Below, one piece after another: positions 1 to 9,235 of a stretch of DNA of 9,235 nucleotides. A model generated the notes under the pieces. That model saw nothing but the letters and a program-made list of their open reading frames with translations. It had not been told where the DNA came from and did not search any database. The translations under genes and the position numbers were made by a program. The DNA lies in contig JBHLMI010000048.1 in the NCBI GenBank assembly GCA_048938295.1, positions 1 to 9,235 of the forward strand. The letters run 5' to 3'. Position 1 is the stretch's first letter; each line of letters opens with the position of its first letter. This DNA is from Promethearchaeota archaeon (lineage in GTDB: Archaea > Asgardarchaeota > Hermodarchaeia > Hermodarchaeales > Hermodarchaeaceae).

Positions 1-31
1 ACGATCCGTTGCGGTGGACAATCACTTTTTT
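1..31 (+). repeat. Array repeat copy 1 (right arm only, truncated by window start)
   Basis: GTTGCGGTGGACAATCACTTTTTT matches the right arm of copy 4 (GTTGCGGTGGACGACCACTTTTT). Confidence 0.85.
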
Positions 32-55
32 CATGTTATTTGTGTGCGCGTTGGG

Positions 56-946
56 TTAGAGGTAGGTTTCGGGTTCTTTTCTGTCGGGGTAGCCTTTGTG
101 TAGATCGCTTTGTGATTTGAGAACGCGTTTGCTCATGACCCGTGCGCCGGTGGGACAGTTTTTGACGCAGGCACAGCACCAGATGCATGCATTATGGTCG
201 GTGGTAATCAACTGCAGGTTGTATCCGATCATGGGGGATGGATTGGATGACACATGTTGAATTCGAATTGCAGCAGTGGGGCAGACGTCTACGCACGTGC
301 CGCATTTGGTGCATTGGTCTTCATTGGTGGAGGGGGTGGCTAATGCGCCGTAGTCGTACCAGGTGAGATTGGCACGCATGGATAACGAGTACGGGGTTGT
401 ACCAGGAGGAGTGACGGGGGAGAGGTCCTCCATGGTATCGACCTGTGCATATTTGTCCCGGATTTGTTGGCCAAACGCTTTGGCTTTGGCGAGATCTTTT
501 GTGTCAGGTCGTCCATGGGCTGTAGGTACTTCAGGGACGCTAAAGGAGTGTTCGCATAGAAAAACCCCTGCAGCGATGGGTTGGAATCCCACCTCGGAGA
601 CAATGTCGCCTAGTTCATAGAGTGCGTCCTCGTAGGCGCGGTTGCCGTAGGTGACGACAATGACGACTGGGATTTTTTGTGCCCGTTTAGCTCCATAGGG
701 TTCCCTGTTACCTGTGAGTCGTCGGATCCGGTAGGCGGCTTCGGTGGGGACGCGTCCGGCGTAGACGGGCACGGAGATAATGGCGAGCTCATCGGTGAAT
801 TCCTTAAATTGCTGGGTGCGTGCACTGGGCGGAGTCAGGTCTATGTGTTCTATGGGGGCTTGGATGCCTTGGGCGATAGCTTCAGCTACCTTCCTTGAGC
901 CCCCGGTTGGAGAGAAACTGATGACTTTAACAGCTCTAATTTTCAA
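56..946 (-). CDS. Flavodoxin-domain / 2x[4Fe-4S] ferredoxin fusion protein (EFR1-like family)
   Basis: N-terminal flavodoxin-type motifs FSPTGGSRKVA, VPVYAGRVP, YGNRAYEDAL, EHS and GRPD. C-terminal CxxCxxCxxxCP motifs CTKCGTCVDVCP and CIWCCACVKNCP. TTG start with GAGGT 8 nt upstream. Confidence 0.9.
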   Translation of the reverse strand: MKIRAVKVISFSPTGGSRKVAEAIAQGIQAPIEHIDLTPPSARTQQFKEFTDELAIISVPVYAGRVPTEAAYRIRRLTGNREPYGAKRAQKIPVVIVVTYGNRAYEDALYELGDIVSEVGFQPIAAGVFLCEHSFSVPEVPTAHGRPDTKDLAKAKAFGQQIRDKYAQVDTMEDLSPVTPPGTTPYSLSMRANLTWYDYGALATPSTNEDQCTKCGTCVDVCPTAAIRIQHVSSNPSPMIGYNLQLITTDHNACIWCCACVKNCPTGARVMSKRVLKSQSDLHKGYPDRKEPETYL

Positions 947-982
947 TGGAATTTACCTCAATTGGGTTTGAATTTATTGATG

Positions 983-991
983 TTATAAAAA
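983..991 (-). promoter_or_regulatory. Archaeal-type TATA box (TTTTTATAA) for the 56..946 gene
   Basis: Reads TTTTTATAA on the minus strand, about 36 nt upstream of the start, with an SD-like GAGGT (955-959) between. Confidence 0.6.
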
Positions 992-1025
992 TCTAACATA
1001 CCTTGAGAGACGTTTTGTGCGGCAC

Positions 1026-1089
1026 GGGAGCGGGTGTATCACTCGGAAACACGGGTGTTGTCCCAGACTGGGGTGGACGCTCATTTTTT
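1026..1089 (+). repeat. Array repeat copy 2
   Basis: GGGAGCGGGTGTATCACTCGGAAACACGGGTGTTGTCCCAGACTGGGGTGGACGCTCATTTTTT. Centre contains CCCA-GAC-TGGG hairpin. Confidence 0.93.
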
Positions 1090-1208
1090 GTCTTCTAATG
1101 ATTTCGCAGTTTTCTAATATGTGCTTTTCCAGTGAAGAAGTTTTATCTGCCCTGGCTTTGTGGAATCTGTATTGAGTATTGATTTTGCATGAATTGGTGG
1201 AGTTTGTT

Positions 1209-1556
1209 ATGGCGTTGATTGATACGGCGAAAATCTTGGCGAAGGCGGGTTCCATTGTGTGTATCATTTTAGGGATTCTTGCTGGTGTGTTGAATGGTCT
1301 TGTGATGTATGAAGAGTTTAGTGGACGGCATGGTATTGCTGTTGAGACTACTCTGTGGTTTTCATTAGCGATTGTCGCGGTGGTCTTCGGGTTCATTATT
1401 CTGTTCTATTGTGTGCCGAGGATCGACCAGGATCGGCAAACAGCAGCCATTTATCTGATTATTTTTGGTGTGATAGCGGCGATTGGTTCGTTCCTTGTCG
1501 GTGGGGTGTTAATATTCGTCGCAGGAATTTTGTTGGCGGTGGAGCAAGCGCGCTAA
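1209..1556 (+). CDS. Small integral membrane protein (about 115 aa, 3-4 hydrophobic helices), function unknown
   Basis: The listed ORF 1179..1556 has a better start at ATG 1209, preceded by GGTGGAG. Long hydrophobic stretches, and it is the sole long + strand ORF between repeats 2 and 3. Confidence 0.8.
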   Translation: MALIDTAKILAKAGSIVCIILGILAGVLNGLVMYEEFSGRHGIAVETTLWFSLAIVAVVFGFIILFYCVPRIDQDRQTAAIYLIIFGVIAAIGSFLVGGVLIFVAGILLAVEQAR

Positions 1557-1700
1557 TTGAACGAAGCCTAATAACCTGATGACGTGGGCATTGAGCTCGT
1601 AAATATCCCAAGCCAATTTTGTTAACGATGTGACTTTAGCCTCCCAACTCTTCTGAGGGATTCCTTGCAATGGACAGCTTGGGAGCCTTTTGTGCGATAC

Positions 1701-1769
1701 GGGAGCGGTTGTATCACTCGGAACACAGGTCCTGTAGACTATCCGTTGGGGTGGACGACCACTTTTTTT
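1701..1769 (+). repeat. Array repeat copy 3
   Basis: GGGAGCGGTTGTATCACTCGGAACACAGGTCCTGTAGACTATCCGTTGGGGTGGACGACCACTTTTTTT. Also shares the upstream flank TTTTGTGCG..ACG (1688-1701) with copy 2 (1013-1026). Confidence 0.95.
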
Positions 1770-1817
1770 GCTAGGTTTTAGGATGGCAAGAGTAATTAGA
1801 AACTAAAGAAGAATAGG

Positions 1818-2921
1818 TTGAGTGGTGTTGGTATGGCACGTGTGGGGTTGGTGGTTTGTTTCATGGGGCTATTGTGGGTTTCGTTGATGGGGGGGCTTCC
1901 GGGGGGAATGTTCGGTGTTGGTGCGGTGGAGGCGCAGAGTGGGGGGTTCAATTTTGTGGCTTATGGGGATACGCGGTCGCATGAGCTTCCGGCGGCGGTG
2001 TCACCGGTGCATGATGGGTTGGTGGCGATGTATCTTGGAGAAAATCCGGAGTTTGTGTTGCATACAGGGGATATGGTGATGGCGGGAGGGATCTGGGATC
2101 AGTGGGTGGAGTTTAACGATTCGATTCAAGGGATTTGGGCGGCAGGAATTCCTTTCTATGGTGTGGTGGGAAACCACGAAAAATACACGGGAACTTGGTA
2201 TGTGTATGATGAGGGATTGAACAATTATACCACCTTTTTTGATTTCGGTGATGCAGTGGATGTGCCCGGTGAAACAGAATTACAGTACGCTTTCACTTAT
2301 GAGGGCGTTCATTTCGTGTTCTTGAATACCGAGGATTACTTCGACGATATGTTTGGGGGTACGCAGCAGTTTAACTGCTCAAGTGGGCAAATGAATTGGT
2401 TATCCAGTTATTTGGTGACTGTCGATCCCGAGGAGTTTCTTGTGGTAACGTTTCATCGCACCGCTTGGTCCATTCTCTTTGATCAACCAAATCGCTGGGA
2501 GGAAGCGCAAACGATTCGTGATGACTTCCATGACCTGTTTGTGCAGTACGATGTCGATTTAGTCTTAATGGGCCATGATCATTATTATTATCGCACTCTG
2601 CGGGATGGGATCTATTATGTCACGACGGGGGGTGGAGGAGGCCCACTGGCAGAAATTGATGTGACGGCTCCGATTTGGCAACCAGGTGATGTGGCCGCTT
2701 CGGAGTACCATTACTGTAACATCAAAGTGAATTCCACCGATGTCACCGTGACAGCATACACATCCGACCACAGTCTGTTAGATTCTTTCAGTATTGAAAG
2801 ACCGAGTAACCCTCTCCCTGGCCCACCCATTGAACTTCTTGTCCTGGGTCTCTGTGTCGTTACCATCATTGTCATTATCATTGTCGTTGTTTTGATCCTC
2901 TATTGGCGAAGGAAAAGCTGA
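1818..2921 (+). CDS. Secreted, C-terminally membrane-anchored metallophosphoesterase (calcineurin-like superfamily, purple-acid-phosphatase-like)
   Basis: Five metal-ligand motif blocks: YGDTRS, HTGDMV, VVGNHE, VTFHR and GHDHYY. Hydrophobic N-terminal signal, Pro-rich linker, C-terminal TM helix and WRRKS tail. The start could be ATG 1833. Confidence 0.9.
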   Translation: MSGVGMARVGLVVCFMGLLWVSLMGGLPGGMFGVGAVEAQSGGFNFVAYGDTRSHELPAAVSPVHDGLVAMYLGENPEFVLHTGDMVMAGGIWDQWVEFNDSIQGIWAAGIPFYGVVGNHEKYTGTWYVYDEGLNNYTTFFDFGDAVDVPGETELQYAFTYEGVHFVFLNTEDYFDDMFGGTQQFNCSSGQMNWLSSYLVTVDPEEFLVVTFHRTAWSILFDQPNRWEEAQTIRDDFHDLFVQYDVDLVLMGHDHYYYRTLRDGIYYVTTGGGGGPLAEIDVTAPIWQPGDVAASEYHYCNIKVNSTDVTVTAYTSDHSLLDSFSIERPSNPLPGPPIELLVLGLCVVTIIVIIIVVVLILYWRRKS

Positions 2922-2948
2922 GGCCCGATACAATTAGCGCTATTGGAA

Positions 2949-2955
2949 TTTTTTT
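2949..2955 (+). terminator. Oligo-T tract (T7) 28 nt after the phosphoesterase stop; candidate archaeal-type terminator
   Basis: TTTTTTT directly downstream of TGA 2919-2921. Confidence 0.4.
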
Positions 2956-2995
2956 GTGTCCGATGAAAATTAATTGGATGTCCTGGAGTGGCCGA

Positions 2996-3058
2996 GGGAG
3001 CTTGGGTGTATTATTCGTGACAAGTTAATTACCGGGTTGCGGTGGACGACCACTTTTT
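2996..3058 (+). repeat. Array repeat copy 4
   Basis: GGGAGCTTGGGTGTATTATTCGTGACAAGTTAATTACCGGGTTGCGGTGGACGACCACTTTTT. Both arms are conserved and the centre is divergent. Confidence 0.92.
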
Positions 3059-3074
3059 GTTGATATTTGTGGGA

Positions 3075-3254
3075 TTATGCCTGTTCTTCGATGATCCAGA
3101 GGTGGCTGGTTTTGACTGAGCTGGGGAAATCGGGACCGATCGCGGGAATGATGGTGATGAGCGTGCCTTTGAGGGTGTTGAGGAAGTCCTCCAGTTTTTG
3201 TTTGTCGTGATTCATATCGATAGGGAGTTTGTGAACTTTGTAAGTTGACACCAT
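3075..3254 (-). CDS. 59-aa hypothetical protein missed by the ORF track: MVSTYKVHKLPIDMNHDKQKLEDFLNTLKGTLITIIPAIGPDFPSSVKTSHLWIIEEQA
   Basis: Hand-translated ATG(3254) to TAA(3075), 60 codons. SD GGGTGA at 3259-3264 and TATA TTTTTATAT at 3289-3297. It fills the unit between repeats 4 and 5. Confidence 0.85.
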   Translation of the reverse strand: MVSTYKVHKLPIDMNHDKQKLEDFLNTLKGTLITIIPAIGPDFPSSVKTSHLWIIEEQA

Positions 3255-3288
3255 TTACTCACCCAAGAGGTGTATCGGAGGATTGGAC

Positions 3289-3297
3289 ATATAAAAA
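3289..3297 (-). promoter_or_regulatory. Archaeal-type TATA box (TTTTTATAT) for the 59-aa gene
   Basis: About 35 nt upstream of ATG 3254, with a GGGTGA SD in between. Confidence 0.6.
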
Positions 3298-3317
3298 CTT
3301 GGAGTAGCGTAGACAAA

Positions 3318-3380
3318 GGGAGTAGGCGTATCACTTGGAAACACGGGTGTTTTTCGATTGGTTTGTGTGGATAACCATTT
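3318..3380 (+). repeat. Array repeat copy 5
   Basis: GGGAGTAGGCGTATCACTTGGAAACACGGGTGTTTTTCGATTGGTTTGTGTGGATAACCATTT. The short T-run overlaps the methyltransferase stop codon (3379-3381). Confidence 0.9.
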
Positions 3381-4035
3381 ACTTATCATGCGAGGTGTTG
3401 CGGGCATAGAGTTTCATATGCCAGATGAAGGTTTTTTGATGGACGAGTTGTGTGAAGCCGGTGTTTTTTAGCAGCGTGTCAATTGCTTTGACGGGGTGGA
3501 TGAAGGTTCGGAAGGGGTGGCGTCGTAGCCATAGGATGAAATTTTCCCATCCGATGGAGAGCTTGCTCGTTAAATTCGTCCGCGGGATTACGATGCCAAA
3601 GAATGTGCGAGCAAGGGCGGCGGATCGTTCAACGAGGGTTTGCCAATCGTCATAGCAACAGATTACTTTATCGAGGGTGACAATGTCGGTGGGGGAGAGG
3701 GTGGAGGCGATGTCGACGAAATCCCCATGATGGTAGCTAATGCGGTCCGTATGACCTTGTCGAGTGGCTTCCTCCTTTGTCGCTTCGATATAAGCCATGG
3801 AGGCTTCCACGTTAATGCTGTGGCGTAACCCAGCTTGTAGTAATTCGTGTTGAATTATGCCGATGCCACCACCAATATCGAGTAAGGTTTTTCCCTGGAC
3901 CCCTTGGCTTTTGAGGGCATCAACGAGTAGGTGCGTGGTTTTATTCATGCCCTTCACCCGATAGGTGCGGAGTTCCGCTTCAGCTACACTCCGATCGAAG
4001 GTCGTTTCAAGTACCTGATACTGACAACAGCCCAT
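3379..4035 (-). CDS. Class I SAM-dependent methyltransferase (substrate unknown; superficially BchM-like size and layout)
   Basis: Motif I LLDIGGGIG, acidic post-motif (VEAS), HGDF, and motif IV-like DIVTLDKVICCY. N-terminal MGCC. Confidence 0.88.
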   Translation of the reverse strand: MGCCQYQVLETTFDRSVAEAELRTYRVKGMNKTTHLLVDALKSQGVQGKTLLDIGGGIGIIQHELLQAGLRHSINVEASMAYIEATKEEATRQGHTDRISYHHGDFVDIASTLSPTDIVTLDKVICCYDDWQTLVERSAALARTFFGIVIPRTNLTSKLSIGWENFILWLRRHPFRTFIHPVKAIDTLLKNTGFTQLVHQKTFIWHMKLYARNTSHDK

Positions 4036-4120
4036 GATTCATGCTTCCATCTATTTAGGATAGAATAAGGTAACGCAACAAACTAGTTAATATCTCATTT
4101 GGAAAATCTGTACGGAAAGA

Positions 4121-4190
4121 AGCCTGGGTGTATTATGGCGTAAACATGGGTGCTGCACGATGCAGTTGGGACAGACGACCATCTTTCTTT
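4121..4190 (+). repeat. Array repeat copy 6
   Basis: AGCCTGGGTGTATTATGGCGTAAACATGGGTGCTGCACGATGCAGTTGGGACAGACGACCATCTTTCTTT. Centre hairpin CTGCA-CGA-TGCAG. Confidence 0.88.
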
Positions 4191-4342
4191 CAAGATGAAT
4201 TAGTCTCATAGTTTAGAAGAATAACACCCCGGTCTTTGAAGGCGCATCTCATAGAAATGAAGTTATTAGTATCTCAACTGACATTAAGGAGTGAAATTCA
4301 GCTCTACCAAGAATAGATGGAGGCGTTCCTCTGTCACAGTTT

Positions 4343-4960
4343 ATGAATGGAGAAAGAGTGAAGCCGAATCAAGTCCCGTATTTGGTTGCGTTTTTTGCCA
4401 GAGAGTATATGCCCAAAATAAAGGCGTTTCTCGAGACGGAGTATCCGACTCGTCAAGAAGGCGTAGAGGGGTTCACAACCGTGATGCGGGCAATTTATCC
4501 GCAGGTCTATCAGTTGCAACAGCAGTTACCCGAATCCCTAGCAGAAGAGATGATTCTAGAGCTTCCTGCGTTTATTAGTCTTCATGAGTGGGAGAAAGAG
4601 CCCAGAACATGGAACAAGGGAAAGAAAAAGGCGCTCACCGCGTTTCTGGAAGGACACGAGACGCCTGCCGATGAGTACGGGAATCCTGAGTTTCTTAGTG
4701 GTATGTTTGTCTCGATTATGATGTTATTGAATTCAACCTATAAGGGGCTAATCTCGCTAAGAGGTCTTTGCAGCAACTTCGAAGATGCCGTATACACTGA
4801 ATCCTATTTTAGCTCAGTTTATCATCAGTTTGAATATGAGATTTTTGTCAAAGGGCTCCTCAAAACCCTTAGCGATCTCAGAGGAATTCTTCCGTTAATC
4901 TATGAGATTGAGCGAAAACTCGCACTGTATCCACCCACTGGGGAACTGGAAAAGATGTAG
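4343..4960 (+). CDS. Hypothetical 205-aa soluble, probably helical protein; no family recognised
   Basis: Longest ORF between repeats 6 and 7, with protein-like composition and no recognisable motif. Confidence 0.75.
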   Translation: MNGERVKPNQVPYLVAFFAREYMPKIKAFLETEYPTRQEGVEGFTTVMRAIYPQVYQLQQQLPESLAEEMILELPAFISLHEWEKEPRTWNKGKKKALTAFLEGHETPADEYGNPEFLSGMFVSIMMLLNSTYKGLISLRGLCSNFEDAVYTESYFSSVYHQFEYEIFVKGLLKTLSDLRGILPLIYEIERKLALYPPTGELEKM

Positions 4961-4993
4961 GGAAACTAGAAAAAAGTACTACCTTTCAATTAA

Positions 4994-5061
4994 AGCCTAG
5001 GATTGTATGTCTGAACAGCAGGAGTTGTAGGATCCTCTGGCATGGACGACCACTTCTTTTT
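4994..5061 (+). repeat. Array repeat copy 7
   Basis: AGCCTAGGATTGTATGTCTGAACAGCAGGAGTTGTAGGATCCTCTGGCATGGACGACCACTTCTTTTT. Right arm intact, centre contains palindrome AGGATCCT. Confidence 0.85.
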
Positions 5062-5120
5062 CCCTTCGGTATTCTCCAAGCGGGGAAGTGTTAGTATGAC
5101 AGATGTTGGGAAGGACCTCT

Positions 5121-5163
5121 GCTGCAACCTTTAAAATGCAGCTCGCCAAAAACGAGAGAAAAA
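5121..5163 (-). terminator. Candidate terminator region downstream of the DUF4256 gene
   Basis: Minus strand has two T5 tracts (5148-5152, 5159-5163) and an inverted repeat GCTGCA/TGCAGC (5121-5142). Confidence 0.35.
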
Positions 5164-5189
5164 GCGTTGAAATTCGAAAATGTCAGAGT

Positions 5190-5756
5190 TTAGACTCGTA
5201 GCGAGCCGCGGAAGGCTCTAGAGCTATAGTATGAAGGCGCACTGTTGTGATAGACGAAGACGGTGTTGTAGCGGCGATCGCAAAAGAGGGCGCCGCCGAG
5301 TTTTCTGATATCAGGAGGGGTTTTTATCCAGCTTGAGGTCTTCGCATCGAACTGTCCGAGTTTCTGTAACGCTCGATATTGATCTTCGGTTAGAAGCTCA
5401 ATGCCCATAGCGGTGGCCATATCGATTGCGTTATTTTTTGGTTTCGCTGATTTCCGTGCGTCCTGCGCTTCACGGTCGTAGCAAACATTTCTGCGGCCTG
5501 TTGGAGTTTCTGGTGAACAATCATGAAAAATGTATTCACCCGTCTTTTTATCATGACCCACAACATCTGGTTCACCGCCAGTTCGTTCCATTTCGTTGAG
5601 TGACCACAGTTTGTCAGGATTCGCTTTCAACTTTGTTTGGATGTTAGCCCATTCAATCCCTTGATGGCGGTTCATATTGTTCTCAAAGCGGGCTTTCAAC
5701 ACGCGGAGTAGTTCTTCATGTTGTTTTGGTGACAACTCCTTTTTGAGTTTGCTCAT
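5190..5756 (-). CDS. DUF4256 family protein
   Basis: Recognised by family-typical strings: LKARFENNMNRH, LWSLNEMERTGGEPDVVG, RRNVCYDREA, MGIELLTE.QYR.LQKLG.FD.KTSSW, GGALFCDRRY..VFVYHN, RAFRGSLRV. Confidence 0.9.
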   Translation of the reverse strand: MSKLKKELSPKQHEELLRVLKARFENNMNRHQGIEWANIQTKLKANPDKLWSLNEMERTGGEPDVVGHDKKTGEYIFHDCSPETPTGRRNVCYDREAQDARKSAKPKNNAIDMATAMGIELLTEDQYRALQKLGQFDAKTSSWIKTPPDIRKLGGALFCDRRYNTVFVYHNSAPSYYSSRAFRGSLRV

Positions 5757-5778
5757 ACTCTGTAGTAATCGTCCCGTG

Positions 5779-5787
5779 TTTATAAAA
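5779..5787 (-). promoter_or_regulatory. Archaeal-type TATA box (TTTTATAAA) positioned for a leaderless DUF4256 transcript
   Basis: TATA centre about 26 nt upstream of ATG 5756, with no SD motif in between. Confidence 0.65.
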
Positions 5788-5942
5788 GCATCAACGCAAG
5801 GGTGACATTGACTTTCTAGCGTATGATCATGTAAAAGATAATAGCTCTATTTTCGTCAGAAAGGCATTAAAGCATACGCTTGGAAACCAAGTTCTTCTAG
5901 AGGACCCAGTGAGGATACCAGGGGAGATGATGTGTGCTGTAA

Positions 5943-5979
5943 GGAGTCTGGGTGTATGATGGTGGAAACTCGAATGTTG
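5943..5979 (+). repeat. Array repeat copy 8 (left half recognisable; right arm degenerate or lost)
   Basis: GGAGTCTGGGTGTATGATGGTGGAAACTCGAATGTTG aligns with copy 6 (CTGGGTGTATTATGGCGTAAAC). The expected GTGGACGACCAC-T-run is not recognisable at about 5990-6005, where the next gene's stop lies. Confidence 0.7.
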
Positions 5980-6003
5980 GAAGCCAAAATTTCATATGAT
6001 GCC

Positions 6004-6822
6004 CTATTGACGGAATTTGGGGAAATGGAGTTTGCCTTCTTGTTTCAGGTAGGAAAAGATCATGAGAACAAAGAGAACAATGGTGATGCCAACAAAAATG
6101 ATGGTGGAAATAACTGAAAACAATTCAAGAGGAGGAGGGAAAAGAGGAATCTGAGGTCCTGTGACCCGGCAGTAGTTTATGTAGAGTTGGGCATCAGGTT
6201 TTCCAGGGGCTTCGATTAGCTGCCAGTGGATGCGATAGTGGTGATAGGTGGCGTTAATATTAATTAGATCATGGGTGATGGTGGTGTAGTTGGTCCAGTA
6301 ACCGGGAGTTTCATTGATGTGTGGGTGGAGGGTGAGGAGATAGGAGTGAGTACCGTTCGGGAGAGGGGTGTCTGATGTGATGCTGGCGTTGAGCCCATAA
6401 AGTAGGATGAGGGCGGACGGTCCGGTGGCGCAACTTCGAAACTGGATGGTGACTTGGTTGATGTCCAAGGGGATGAAGTCTTGCCAGAACATAATGGTGT
6501 GCTCTTGGTTTGCGCGGGTGGGTTGCAGGAACAGGGTATCAGCATCTCCACCATTTTCGGTATCATTGATGAGATGGTATTGTTCTTTGGGTCCGGTGGT
6601 ATCGCCGGTAAAATGCCAGAAGGCGGGTTTAGTTGCGTTATGATCATTACCCTCCCAGCCACCAGGTTCTGTTATGGTGAAATCCCAATTGGCTACTAAA
6701 TCAACGGGAACAGGAAGTTGCTTTGACGCCCTAGAGAGAGGAACTTGGTTAGTTATCGGCGTCAGGGAGAATATGGTCAGTAAACTAATCAGGAGTAGAC
6801 AGGTTGTGAGCGATTTTTTCAT
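6004..6822 (-). CDS. Secreted / C-terminally membrane-anchored hypothetical protein (272 aa), probably beta-rich extracellular domain
   Basis: Signal peptide MKKSLTTCLLLISLLTIFSL, several N-x-S/T sequons (NATK, NDTE, NASI, NGTH, NETP no, NYTT, NATY), PPPLEL then a TM helix and basic tail. SD GGGTGA at 6829-6834. Confidence 0.82.
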   Translation of the reverse strand: MKKSLTTCLLLISLLTIFSLTPITNQVPLSRASKQLPVPVDLVANWDFTITEPGGWEGNDHNATKPAFWHFTGDTTGPKEQYHLINDTENGGDADTLFLQPTRANQEHTIMFWQDFIPLDINQVTIQFRSCATGPSALILLYGLNASITSDTPLPNGTHSYLLTLHPHINETPGYWTNYTTITHDLININATYHHYRIHWQLIEAPGKPDAQLYINYCRVTGPQIPLFPPPLELFSVISTIIFVGITIVLFVLMIFSYLKQEGKLHFPKFRQ

Positions 6823-6975
6823 TCCTTTTCACCCGCTGGAGATGCTATTTCACCGCTGGAATGTGAGGATAAATGTTCTTTACCGGTTTAAAGAACGCAT
6901 TGGTCCTTATGTGAATATAAAGAAAAGATTGAGAAAAACCGAATACACCATTTCGTGCAGGACCCCTCAAAGATT

Positions 6976-7027
6976 GAGCCGAGAATGTCAATGACCATGA
7001 GTTGATTGGAGTTGACGACCACTTTTT
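6976..7027 (+). repeat. Array repeat copy 9 (shortened centre)
   Basis: GAGCCGAGAATGTCAATGACCATGAGTTGATTGGAGTTGACGACCACTTTTT. The right arm GACGACCACTTTTT is exact and ACCATGAGT is shared with copy 10. Confidence 0.8.
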
Positions 7028-7081
7028 GTATGCTATTTTTTAACTTGGATGTCTTATATGTGATAGGTCGACGAGGAGGCC

Positions 7082-8869
7082 TTGTGTACGTCAACTGCTG
7101 TGCTCATGAAGTTGTTGGAAACAGCGCCGTGGCGCTATGACCAGGGGATTGATTTTCTCACACTGGGTGTTGATTCGAAGCTTAAAAAACGGATTGCAGA
7201 TGAATTTATCTTTCCGTCGGATGATGTTCTTGAAATAGGGAGTGGAACGGGTTCCTTGGCGTTGTTGTGTGCCCAGAAAGGGGCGCAGGTGATGGGCATT
7301 GATGTATCACCTACAATGATTGCATTAGCTCAAACCAAAGTGGCGAAGGCCCGGTTGTCGGATCGGGTTCAGTTTCGGGAAATGGACCTGACGGAAATTG
7401 ACCAGTTGCCCGATGCCTCCTTTGATGTGGTGATTGCCACCTTGGTGTTTAGTGAATTGTCGGAGGTGGAGCAGTTTTATGCGCTCCGTGAAGCGTGGCG
7501 GCTGCTTCGCCCAGAGGGACGGCTAATCATTATGGATGAAGTTCGACCCCAATTGCTCCGCAAGATGCTTCCCTACTACATGTTACGTGTCCCTCTCACA
7601 ACATTCACTTTTCTATTGAGCCAAACAACGACCCATCGGGTGAAGAATCTCGAAACAAAGCTCGAAATATCCGGATTTCGAATTACCATGCAAGAGCAGC
7701 ATTTACTAGATTCGATTATGTTACTCGTCGCCACCAAACAACCCCAACGACCCATTGAAGCAGCAGGTCCTCGTCTGTTTCCAACGGTTCACGTTGGATC
7801 ACGAATGAAGTATGTGGCTGAAACTATTTTTCGTTGGGTAGGTGTCCCTATCACACCCGGGTATATCGCTGTGGGACAGCCCTCCGATGAAAGCCCTGTT
7901 CTAGTCACATGCAATTATGACTTGACGGTTCGCCGCGTTCTAAAAACACTTCAACACGCACAGGTTGATTGCTTTCTACTGGTAGCTCCAACTCGGGGAA
8001 TCAACGTGTGGTGTGCCTCTTGTGGTGGAGATTTTACGGCACACTCCGTTATCGCGGCAATCAAGCTTAGTGGCATTAACAACCTGGTGCAGCACCGACA
8101 TTTGTTTCTACCTCAACTGGCAGCACCGGGAGTTGACCCCGATGTGATTAAGGAGGAGACGGGATGGTCAGCACAGTTTGGACCAGTGAAAGCCAAAGAT
8201 ATACCCACCTACTTGAAGAATGGAGCACAGAAAACCGAGGCCATACGCACTGTACGATTTCCGGTGTCAAAGCGCTTAGAAATGGCAAGTCTATATGCGA
8301 TCATAATTTCACTCCTTGCAATCCCCATCAGCCTAATCTTTGCACCCCCCAAGCTCCTCACGACCCTAGGAATCATTTGGCTGCTTATCTGCGGTGCCTA
8401 TCTTCTTTCGCCATATCTCCCGAGTAGATCTGGGTTCGTGAAAACGCTGGTGTATGGCATCTGTGCCATCTCCGTTGTCCTACTTGTGGCCCTTTATACC
8501 ACGGGGAGCCTGTTAGGATTGCCATGGGAACTTCTTCTAACGATTCTTGTTTTGCTAATCTTAGGGGTTGATTTCAACGGGATGACTCCGATACTACCCA
8601 GCGACCTCGGTCGTCTACTCTATGGCCGAGGTCACTCAGAAATGCCCTTCTTCACAGGAAAGTATCCGCTTCAACCCTATGGACGAATCACCGAGGATGT
8701 GGAGTCATGTATTGGATGTGGGATGTGCGTACAAGTCTGTCCAAGGAATGTCTACCAGTTAGATAAAGCAAGACGTAAGGCGGATTTAATACACCCCAAG
8801 GACTGTGTCAACTGTAATGCTTGTGTTCATCGATGCCCCGCACATTGCCTTCACATTATCAAATCATGA
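7082..8869 (+). CDS. Fusion: class I SAM methyltransferase + HgcA/CdhD-like corrinoid-binding domain + ~4 TM helices + HgcB-like 2x[4Fe-4S] ferredoxin (HgcAB-like fusion with N-terminal methyltransferase)
   Basis: EIGSGTG motif I in a UbiE-like N-terminus. SPVLVTCNYDLT, TRGINVWCASCGGDFT and LPQLAAPGV match the corrinoid domain of the HgcA/CdhD family. A hydrophobic block follows, then CIGCGMCVQVCP (8708) and CVNCNACVHRCP (8804). The exact start (TTG 7082 vs ATG 7106) is uncertain. Confidence 0.85.
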   Translation: MCTSTAVLMKLLETAPWRYDQGIDFLTLGVDSKLKKRIADEFIFPSDDVLEIGSGTGSLALLCAQKGAQVMGIDVSPTMIALAQTKVAKARLSDRVQFREMDLTEIDQLPDASFDVVIATLVFSELSEVEQFYALREAWRLLRPEGRLIIMDEVRPQLLRKMLPYYMLRVPLTTFTFLLSQTTTHRVKNLETKLEISGFRITMQEQHLLDSIMLLVATKQPQRPIEAAGPRLFPTVHVGSRMKYVAETIFRWVGVPITPGYIAVGQPSDESPVLVTCNYDLTVRRVLKTLQHAQVDCFLLVAPTRGINVWCASCGGDFTAHSVIAAIKLSGINNLVQHRHLFLPQLAAPGVDPDVIKEETGWSAQFGPVKAKDIPTYLKNGAQKTEAIRTVRFPVSKRLEMASLYAIIISLLAIPISLIFAPPKLLTTLGIIWLLICGAYLLSPYLPSRSGFVKTLVYGICAISVVLLVALYTTGSLLGLPWELLLTILVLLILGVDFNGMTPILPSDLGRLLYGRGHSEMPFFTGKYPLQPYGRITEDVESCIGCGMCVQVCPRNVYQLDKARRKADLIHPKDCVNCNACVHRCPAHCLHIIKS

Positions 8870-8934
8870 ACGTAAAATGATGGAACCATGAGTGTTGTAG
8901 ACGAACTGTGGCGGTTGATAGCCACTTTCTTTTT
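8867..8934 (+). repeat. Array repeat copy 10
   Basis: TGAACGTAAAATGATGGAACCATGAGTGTTGTAGACGAACTGTGGCGGTTGATAGCCACTTTCTTTTT. The left end coincides with the fusion gene's TGA stop. Confidence 0.78.
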
Positions 8935-9045
8935 CAAAAAAGATTGATGGGGAGAATACGGCTGAACTCGTTGTGGTGAGCATATTAGGCAAATTATTTC
9001 TGGGGGTTGTCGTGTAGTGGGTAAAGGTAGGTGGTTGGTTCGTTG

Positions 9046-9235
9046 ATGGAGATTACGTTGGGTGTGTTGTTTTGGGGGTATGTGATGGCGTACTGTGTGC
9101 ATGTCGTCGAGGAAGCGGCTGTGGGTGAAGGGTTCATTGAGATGATGCGTACCACCTTTCATCCAGACTATACGGGTCGGATGTTCTTTGGATTTAACCT
9201 CATGATTTTTTTGGTGTTTGTCGCTGGGATTGTAG
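9046..9235 (+). CDS. HXXEE-domain membrane protein, 5' part only (runs off window)
   Basis: Hand-translated open frame MEITLGVLFWGYVMAYCVHVVEEAAVGEGFIEMMRTTFHPDYTGRMFFGFNLMIFLVFVAGIV... has HVVEE after a hydrophobic helix. In-frame TAG at 9028 bounds it upstream. Confidence 0.8.
   Translation, partial: MEITLGVLFWGYVMAYCVHVVEEAAVGEGFIEMMRTTFHPDYTGRMFFGFNLMIFLVFVAGIV

Follow-up and report, generated by a model that had tools for sequence, protein, structure and literature searches.

Cargo-gene arrays behind the 16S rRNA gene of Hermodarchaeota and a possible link of their G-rich tracts to homing and break repair

Results

Organization of the window

The window, i.e. the whole stretch of DNA analysed here, comprises 9,235 nt of contig JBHLMI010000048.1 (GCA_048938295.1) from a Promethearchaeota archaeon of the Hermodarchaeaceae, whose genome (G000) is 91.6% complete. 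It carries cargo genes, five in plus and five in minus orientation, set between copies of a repeat (Table 1), and none of them is orc1/cdc6-like. The 115-aa membrane protein is present in 8 arrays and, in 7 of them, lies 108-124 nt past its repeat. The metallophosphoesterase exhibits G/V/W enrichment at its N-terminus, and the 272-aa protein is probably secreted and membrane-anchored, judging from its hydrophobic ends. A viral search with the DUF4256 cargo gave no match, nor did exact-pattern searches and a PDB sequence search.

Table 1. Features of the window. Scores are those of the comparison with 16S trailers.
Feature	Position	Strand	Remark
16S 3' trailer copy, terminal part	1..36	+	truncated by contig start
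Flavodoxin-like/4Fe-4S protein, 296 aa, cargo	56..946	-	strong tract, little decay
16S trailer copy, offsets +35 to +145 past 16S end	998..1105	+	score 106, shuffled maximum 33.5
115-aa membrane protein, cargo	1209..1556	+	
16S trailer copy, offsets +12 to +131	1649..1772	+	
Metallophosphoesterase, cargo	1833..2921	+	clearest tract of the window
16S trailer copy	2984..3065	+	
59-aa protein, cargo	3075..3254	-	no match in Pfam
16S trailer copy	3298..3393	+	
SAM methyltransferase, cargo	3379..4035	-	present in 5 arrays
16S trailer copy	4099..4193	+	score 99 against the G014 trailer, 71.5 against its own genome's
205-aa protein without assigned function, cargo	4343..4960	+	weak tract
Degenerate 16S trailer copy	4982..5064	+	
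DUF4256 protein, cargo	5190..5756	-	
16S trailer copy without terminator, begins 2 nt past 16S end	5883..5982	+	score 94.5 against the G014 trailer, 63 against its own
272-aa protein, hydrophobic ends, cargo	6004..6822	-	present in 5 arrays
Trailer remnant, terminal hairpin and T run only	7004..7035	+	weak: score 36, shuffled maximum 31
CpaM methyltransferase fused to HgcAB-like protein, cargo	7106..8869	+	present in 5 arrays
Degenerate 16S trailer copy	8868..8936	+	
Membrane protein, cargo	9046..9234	+	truncated by contig end; homologues in several arrays
G-rich, C-poor tracts, about 0.5-1 kb each, beginning past a trailer copy	32..9235	+	

Origin of the repeat

The repeat of the window is a copy of the 16S rRNA 3' trailer, which is found directly past the 16S gene in G000, G006, G014 and G016. 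In two genomes, the trailer pairs with the 16S 5' leader, with energies of -25 and -57 kcal/mol compared to -13 ± 4 and -20 ± 5 kcal/mol in shuffles; the predicted duplex, searched for a strict 3-4-3 bulge-helix-bulge motif, contains internal loops. The duplicated pieces are 100-150 nt long, include the trailer and have ragged left ends, and, of 84 non-native copies, 26 begin within the interval from -12 to +9 around the mature end of 16S. Up to nine extra trailer copies occur per contig. The units, each a trailer and a cargo gene, are common to several species in shuffled order, and two trailers of the window (4099..4193 and 5883..5982) resemble that of G014 more than that of their own genome, as far as pairwise scores tell. 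We read the window as part of the interior of a cargo-gene array that has the 16S 3' end as its anchor; in the assembly, the window contig and the 16S contig are separate, with no join.

Other identities of the repeat were rejected. An attC site or other folded repeat is not indicated by consensus pairs (none) or by folding z-scores (-1.5 to +0.25), a likeness of the repeat core to Gly-Asn-Thr-Gly codons or ORB boxes gained no further support, and Rfam returned no credible match. No integrase or attI was found at the array head, which is 16S rRNA. The two tyrosine recombinases of G000 both lie on contigs other than that of the window, and reverse transcriptases (RVT_1) were absent from G000 and present in 1 of 19 genomes of the family.

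Nuclease-like genes at the array heads

The first array position behind 16S is often occupied by a gene for a putative PD-(D/E)xK-like nuclease flanked by two trailer copies. The encoded protein, of 419 aa in G000 (contig C48, 1603-2862), has no match in Pfam or NCBIfam. Its PD...ECK residues are invariant in 12 homologues, and its C-terminal domain resembles PD-(D/E)xK nucleases, a moderate likeness with Z below 8 (MspJI, Z 7.3, rmsd 4.2, 141 aligned; Foldseek E of 4e-4 to the best nuclease fold match). Among the fetched homologue loci, the trailer lies upstream of the gene in 7 of 7, a detectable copy directly downstream in 6, and the 16S end in the 4 that are long enough; L193, L194 and G006 look like one species, which makes some of these loci non-independent. 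A distant homologue in G016 sits elsewhere. The arrays of G014 and G016 have a position 1 without this gene, and 3'-end remnants of it were found past internal trailers in G001 and G014. The gene itself carries a modest G-rich tract only. All 16S genes that bear the putative nuclease gene have a short insert close to their 3' end, as does 16S of G014, and that of G016 lacks it; the insert may mark alleles that would be spared from cutting by the position-1 protein.

Five genomes have an array of the same design behind actin, and in 4 of these a LAGLIDADG gene or fragment comes first; two hydrogenase-type genes likewise carry such arrays. The LAGLIDADG protein behind actin has a feature score of 0.92 and a TM of 0.59. 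Further LAGLIDADG genes lie behind an Arf/Ras GTPase gene and a hydrogenase gene, and 5 of 14 Pfam LAGLIDADG sites are near a strong tract compared to 8.6% of random sites. The LAGLIDADG genes at actin, the Arf/Ras GTPase and the hydrogenase are free-standing, each next to a conserved gene as its presumed target and not within an intron or intein, as in free-standing homing endonuclease elements. The LAGLIDADG genes behind actin grow more G-rich away from the anchor, and the actin skew switch is mostly 10-30 nt ahead of the starts of the duplicated ends.

Strand bias in the window and in related arrays

The preliminary description of this DNA had reported, from 120-nt counts, a + strand G excess that resets at each repeat and is independent of gene direction. 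All 18 of its G/C counts were reproduced exactly, and the gradient persists at 4-fold degenerate sites (n = 1144), which rules out amino-acid composition as its cause. At these sites, the + strand GC skew in successive bins of distance from the preceding repeat (0-150 to 1400-2000 nt) was +0.73, +0.58, +0.50, +0.29, +0.21, +0.12, -0.21 and -0.03, i.e. highest just past the repeat and about zero by 1 kb. The correlation with distance (Spearman rho -0.22) was significant against random boundaries (p = 0.0012) and shifted boundaries (p = 0.008). The gradient is seen on both gene strands: the skew falls from +0.82 to about -0.2 in plus genes and from +0.70 to +0.40/+0.56 in minus genes, which stay short of a full return to baseline. 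Ordinary genes of G000, called with our own gene caller, have a coding-strand skew that stays between -0.20 and -0.31 with hardly any slope, so that window genes of both orientations begin far above baseline. As the sign tracks the DNA strand and not the gene, the skew is mutational, and its polarity is that of a newly made or displaced + strand, both as had been proposed.

The 4-fold G/C counts by thirds are 38/0, 18/17 and 16/18 in the metallophosphoesterase gene and 32/4, 24/6 and 28/6 in the first unit (56-946), which indeed scarcely decays; the tract is weak in 4343-4960. The composition change consists of G going up and C going down, while T hardly moves. The same gradient recurs on both gene strands in arrays of related Hermodarchaeota genomes, where 94 of 100 array units have a G excess, and it is one-sided, with no C excess ahead of the next repeat. 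Tract strength is not linked to repeat conservation (rho -0.09). Some tracts remain where the repeat is now undetectable, and the tract is missing past some trailer copies, as at the ABC operon in G001 and G003.

Tracts and switches across the genome

The link of the gradient to the repeats, which equal gradients elsewhere would weaken, held only in part: 178 segments (140 kb) carry such tracts, nearly all of them with no repeat. Two-sided switches of skew are divergent in 17 cases and convergent in 0. They often sit at fixed codons in conserved genes, identical in 13-18 genomes. Each is confined to a few codons; conservation is even along the genes concerned, and their synonymous sites are not more conserved at the switches. 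Mid-gene switches include those of radA, the H+-pyrophosphatase (PPase) and the pyruvate-oxidoreductase beta subunit (PFOR-beta); in the sampled genomes, no nuclease gene was found beside these three, and a k-mer search at switches yielded no short shared motif that was convincing after multiple testing. Between G000 and G001, radA is 92-94% identical ahead of the switch and 81% past it, and PPase and PFOR-beta are 72-85% identical compared to 88-93% for three control genes, which suggests interspecies replacement. An array anchored at radA was rejected: the trailer and gene unit upstream of radA occurs in G000 and in no relative examined, pointing to a solo insertion.

The preliminary description had invoked deamination of single-stranded DNA. 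The excess of C>T and A>G fits, but deamination is insufficient alone, since transversions to G are also asymmetric, C>G being the largest asymmetry, and T falls in radA. Silent sites in tracts reach 45-80% G, enough to shift amino-acid composition, and the overall substitution rate is not clearly raised (4.1 compared to 4.0, a rough estimate). In a likelihood comparison of fossil and ongoing bias, the stationary model was better by 11 log units for plus cargo and tied for minus cargo; stationarity is something that site heterogeneity is able to mimic. Parsimony polarisation of substitutions was discarded as uninformative, being biased toward common-to-rare changes.

Discussion

From the observed anatomy of the arrays, we infer cleavage, an error-prone enzyme and a timing of the bias, and favour, as rather probable, that free-standing homing endonucleases and repair copying build the arrays and leave the G-biased tracts. 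The position-1 gene would encode a homing endonuclease whose cuts, in unprotected alleles, fall close to where 16S ends. Of the two broken ends, the left one would invade another allele, often that of a related species, copy the trailer, the nuclease gene and sometimes further units, and then anneal to the trimmed right end via a trailer copy, so that new units come in at the head of the array. Once the nuclease is lost, a trailer and its cargo would be left, and the cycle could start again. The new DNA would be the + strand to the right of the break and the - strand to the left, as far as resection and conversion tracts reach, and uncorrected errors in this new (or D-loop-displaced) strand, over many cycles, would produce G-rich tracts decaying over about 1 kb. 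The polymerases of this genome include a Y-family enzyme (contig C20), PolB and PolD. Since the array would take along nothing but the right side of the cut, its tracts would look one-sided, and fill-in starting anew from internal trailer copies would probably refresh part of the bias. Break repair predicts the divergent-only pattern of the two-sided switches. Against the model count the three mid-gene switches with no nuclease neighbour, the arrays of G014 and G016 that lack the gene at position 1, the modest tract of that gene, the rise of G away from the anchor in the LAGLIDADG genes behind actin, the substitution rate, which is not clearly raised in tracts, and the very many repair events that 45-80% G would need.

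An unlikely alternative dispenses with a dedicated nuclease: conserved gene ends and trailers would anchor incoming DNA of relatives, the invasion would prime error-prone synthesis, and the nuclease genes would be passengers. The anchors rank with the most conserved genes, a nuclease neighbour is missing at several switches, and the PPase and PFOR-beta identities fall below those of the controls, all as expected from such anchoring. It does not account for the sharpness of the switches within uniformly conserved genes, nor for the recurrence of different nuclease families at position 1 of different anchors.

Still less likely, R-loops would cause the bias, the transcripts of stable RNAs and some mRNAs staying hybridised at 3' ends or pause sites, where they expose the sense strand or prime synthesis, with trailer copies acting likewise in place. 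The tracts lie downstream and not upstream of tRNAs (11 of 15; mean +16.9 compared to -1.5), another is downstream of 23S, many switches sit near gene 3' ends, and the bias of plus cargo looks maintained. However, gene 3' ends in general score about zero, with no tract, and EF-1 alpha shows none, the same lack of signal on which general read-through transcription was rejected; upstream of 16S, it is the opposite strand that is G-rich, and mid-gene two-sided switches and duplications are left unexplained. The trailer forms one arm of a stem and a terminator and is not a promoter, and the transcription start that had been proposed in each repeat is likewise not supported; a sigma-70-type promoter scan, a model ill-suited to archaea, was at chance level.

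We give little credence to a replication origin or rolling-circle nick site in each repeat that processes its own unit, as the preliminary description had also suggested. The skew resets at each repeat, its polarity resembles a leading or displaced strand, and the solo unit beside radA exists in G000 only. Yet the repeat is a 16S trailer, the skew is one-sided and unlinked to repeat quality, identical tracts occur elsewhere with no repeat, no conserved hairpin was seen, and a search of G000 for the Y1 relaxase domain (PF01797) gave no match. Selection on codon choice, protein termini, chromatin or RNA structure is the least credible cause: actin and radA, highly conserved and probably highly expressed, are C-rich over most of their length, but the skew follows the DNA strand at 4-fold sites and flips within single genes.

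Returning to homing and break repair, we tentatively extend it to a possible wider picture, in which Hermodarchaeota would practise integrase-free gene capture, homing endonucleases that target conserved gene ends (those of 16S rRNA, actin and hydrogenases) repeatedly stacking relatives' genes into integron-like arrays and strongly G-biased repair marking every past break. If true, Asgard archaea would have a route for gene exchange and array building by homing, with no integrase, even at actin and the rRNA gene. Mutagenic break repair would leave an unusually strong and readable signature in which fixed switches predict cut sites within a few codons, and silent-site skew would map break and recombination hotspots genome-wide, including those whose nuclease is gone. 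It would further suggest that nucleases with long targets await characterisation, a PD-(D/E)xK-like family associated with 16S rRNA among them, and the open question whether homing is mutagenic (PMC5378118) would become testable. Local GC-skew switches in these genomes are no evidence for replication origins. Neither the arrays nor the tracts are described in the literature searched, subscription papers aside.

Tandem genomic islands at tRNA or tmRNA 3' ends arise when integration duplicates the 3' end of the stable RNA and elements stack behind it; in contrast, the duplications here are 100-150 nt long with ragged left ends, include the trailer, and their units have no integrase. Replication skew and mitochondrial strand-displacement gradients also show a G-rich strand leaving a switch point, with C>T and A>G excess. 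They differ from the present tracts, which have a scale of about 1 kb, many sites inside genes, no rise of T and C>G as the largest asymmetry. Integrons and CALINs, including archaeal ones (PMC9668308), share mostly single-gene units between repeats, shuffling between genomes and apparent growth at one anchor; here, there is neither an attC fold nor an integrase at the anchor, genes point either way, and each gene comes after its repeat, which stems from the end of a host gene.

Mutagenic homing near mobile introns has been reported as SNP density (PMC5378118), and the same paper refers to Hicks et al. 2010 for a figure of about 1400-fold for mutation during HO-break repair. In both cases, change is concentrated around endonuclease targets, putative ones here, in conserved genes and decays with distance, but the Hermodarchaeota tracts are a polar, strand-specific shift at silent sites. 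T-even phages exhibit intronless homing and SegB-driven segmental amplification (PMC13096335, PMC2790892, PMC3943268): a free-standing nuclease cuts a conserved neighbour, often a tRNA gene, repair co-converts the flanks and the locus may expand, as would happen here if cutting occurs. SegB amplifies one segment in tandem in a phage, whereas successive units here are different genes on a cellular archaeal chromosome. In fungal mitochondria, free-standing homing endonuclease genes with a partial duplication of the neighbour gene are known at atp6, atp9, cox1 and rns, and strand-biased tracts are not among the features reported in the excerpted text (PMC7487136). These elements share with ours a conserved gene that is partly duplicated and has a nuclease gene next to it, of LAGLIDADG type at actin; the 16S element described here differs in being PD-(D/E)xK-like, and the Hermodarchaeota loci form arrays in which each copy has unrelated cargo that is shared between species.

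Strand skew in the window and in related arrays

The preliminary description had reported a sawtooth G/C strand skew that is reset at each repeat. All of its 18 hand counts were exact on recount, and the gradient persisted, on both gene strands, when restricted to 4-fold degenerate sites (permutation p = 0.0012); the skew observation is thus confirmed. At these sites in the window, which makes up the entire contig C31 of a 2.5-Mb genome (G000), the GC skew goes from +0.73 at ≤150 nt from the repeat to about 0 by 1 kb. G rises, C drops and T is little altered. The ordinary genes of G000, predicted with our own gene caller, which also recovered the genes of the window, present a coding-strand skew near −0.22 that is almost flat along their length. 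The arrays of related genomes exhibit a matching curve, in + and − genes alike, and no mirror-image skew ahead of the next repeat; 94 of 100 array units have a G excess.

The repeat is the trailer of 16S rRNA

The window carries 10 copies of the repeat, every one on the + strand and without a common fold. Of 12 genomes sampled within the genus, 10 contain the repeat; 8 genomes from other families lack it. The best copy in G000, located on contig C48, directly follows the 16S rRNA gene at its 3′ end, and three relatives (G006, G014 and G016) likewise present it after the 16S 3′ end, with arrays extending away from 16S. This trailer, which terminates in a hairpin and a T run, base-pairs with the leader of 16S. 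The repeat therefore consists of the 3′ arm of the pre-rRNA stem and a likely terminator. Well-kept copies reach as far back as the 16S end; of 84 non-native copies, 26 begin between −12 and +9 relative to it.

Across species, the cargo genes carried in the arrays keep their orientation and trailer distance and differ in order, and two trailer copies of the window are closer to another species' trailer than to that of G000. Because the repeat is the 16S trailer, units are common to species and some copies are foreign-like, the window is most likely an internal portion of a 16S-anchored array, C31 and C48 being unjoined in the assembly. In one mobile cargo, present in 5 arrays, the corrinoid-associated methyltransferase CpaM is fused to an HgcAB-like protein; both parts exceed their NCBIfam cut-offs, and the cargo falls under the cut-off for true HgcA. 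A solo unit beside radA in G000 indicates that units are able to land outside the array.

In both G000 and G006, the gene that comes first behind 16S (position 1) lies on the opposite strand and specifies a 419-aa protein with 11 homologues, in which a PD...ECK motif is invariant. In structure comparison, the C-terminal half of its model (pLDDT 82) resembles PD-(D/E)xK nucleases with moderate scores. The homologues' gene sits after a trailer in all 7 fetched loci, 16S itself being visible in the 4 that are long enough. In 6 of the 7, a second trailer copy, starting at most about 8 nt from the 16S end, lies just beyond the start codon. In the 16S genes that carry the position-1 gene, a short insertion sits at about 25 nt from the gene end and could protect bearers from the predicted nuclease. 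Short remnants of the 3′ end of the gene, directly after internal trailers in G001 and G014, indicate that at least some internal units were formerly position-1 elements.

Arrays at other anchor genes

Self-comparison of the G000 genome gave a second array, on contig C18, in which the actin 3′ end and terminator recur in nine additional copies and the skew has the same sawtooth form as in the window. Its first gene encodes a LAGLIDADG protein, with orthologues in G012 and G014 and a fragmentary counterpart in G005, and a LAGLIDADG fragment also lies behind an internal actin-end copy in G000. Actin-anchored arrays are also present in four relatives. At the silent sites of actin, an excess of C gives way to one of G, mostly 10-30 nt ahead of the starts of the duplicated ends. 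Smaller cases of duplicated ends lie behind two hydrogenase-type genes. The array design is thus general beyond 16S.

In the actin 3′ end of G010 (L188, contig C32), a short insertion, possibly a small archaeal intron, breaks the reading frame exactly at the skew switch. Three nuclease-like genes (at L138, L007 and L006) have an amino-acid composition visibly distorted by skew, with T/P/H/I-rich or G/V/W-rich stretches; at L138 and L007 the skew grows with distance from the anchor.

Coordinates of arrays, cargo and neighbouring features
Feature	Location	Remarks
CpaM/HgcAB-like fusion	window 7106-8869 (+)	
Actin array	G000:C18, L005 1-11834	
Short array of duplicated 3′ ends, hydrogenase-type large-subunit gene	L189 (G000:C2 108.3-112.6 kb)	
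Short array of duplicated 3′ ends, hydrogenase-type large-subunit gene	L007 1-2600	LAGLIDADG-like gene between copies
Solo trailer and methyltransferase unit	L004 15245-15890	between radA and upstream neighbour; G000 only
Nuclease-like gene	L138 966-2552	
Nuclease-like gene	L007 362-2272	
Nuclease-like gene	L006 16878-18734	
LAGLIDADG-containing ORF	G000:C35 34318-35087	starts in or directly after tRNA-Thr gene
Local short duplications beside tracts	G000:C6 59-805 and 4815-4898; C38 6632-8375; C32 3014-7738; C66 16723-44790	
16S rRNA genes with several insertions	L003 1-1445; L084	some with nuclease-like ORFs; one or two short insertions close to 3′ end

G-rich tracts across the genome

A scan of 4-fold sites in G000 yielded 178 G-rich segments covering 140 kb. 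Along the G-rich strand, 49 of 65 strong, non-tied segments decay 5′ to 3′, like the window. The preliminary description had linked the gradient to the repeats; ordinary genes are nearly flat, and tracts occur throughout the genome, nearly all of the 178 segments being without this repeat. Two-sided switches, where the silent-site skew changes sign, are divergent in 17 cases and convergent in none. The 16S locus is two-sided, with C-rich genes upstream; downstream tracts occur at tRNAs and 23S, and gene ends in general have none. In G000, the 23S trailer (contig C20) has an end hairpin and T run resembling those of 16S, followed by a tract; a repeat array was not seen there.

Switches lie at identical codons across 13-18 genomes in H+-pyrophosphatase (PPase), pyruvate-oxidoreductase beta (PFOR-beta) and radA, and coincide with conserved protein motifs. 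The radA switch is absent in 16 more distant Asgard genomes. The relatives of G000 in radA bear the label Candidatus Hermodarchaeota. G010 and G013, counted as separate species, have near-identical PPase and PFOR-beta genes (L142/L143, L161/L162). Among the family genomes, G013 alone has reverse transcriptases; its 9 matches lie on short contigs (L123-L130) and could be contamination.

In a rough rate model of the G-rich strand, C>T is 3.7 vs 1.9 for G>A, A>G 2.8 vs 1.35 for T>C, C>G 2.0 vs 0.4 for G>C and T>A 1.95 vs 0.9 for A>T. In the radA tract, G attains 60-80% and T drops. Deamination of resected overhangs predicts a polarity opposite to that observed, and deamination by itself would not give the asymmetric C>G and T>A rates or the T decrease in radA.

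Proposed mechanism

Reasoning from standard double-strand-break repair, we consider it fairly probable that homing endonuclease cutting and biased break repair build both arrays and tracts. The endonuclease would cut near the anchor 3′ end, and repair would use a donor allele. Re-annealing via a trailer copy would insert trailer and gene units at the array front, leaving copies whose left ends are ragged and lie just beyond the cut, and units would stack through repeated nuclease invasion and decay. Extension of the left 3′ end, with refilling of the resected right end, would produce + strand DNA to the right of the break, the newly made DNA on the left being the − strand. This polarity of synthesis matches that of the tracts. 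The earlier proposals are partly right: a displaced + strand, like a newly made one, agrees with the tract polarity. The repeat as an origin or rolling-circle site is not supported, the repeat being the 16S trailer.

Homing is known to be accompanied by co-conversion (PMC3943268), and mutagenic repair of breaks made by endonucleases has been suggested and, in yeast, measured (PMC5378118). With regard to the enzyme behind the G bias, G000 encodes a Y-family polymerase. An ABC operon after a trailer has no tract in two genomes, and tract strength does not correlate with repeat quality, which together favour marking beside the anchor; a likelihood test on + cargo favours continued renewal of the bias. 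In the sampled genomes, the switches of radA, PPase and PFOR have no nuclease gene as a neighbour; one radA 3′-end remnant is present in G014.

Comparison with known systems

In the literature searched, neither arrays of this kind nor polar G tracts were described. The array resembles that of an integron but does not pass the tests for one (PMC9668308), since its repeats share no fold and its head is 16S. In its proposed working, the system of the window is like a free-standing homing endonuclease with a duplicated gene end (PMC7487136, PMC13096335).
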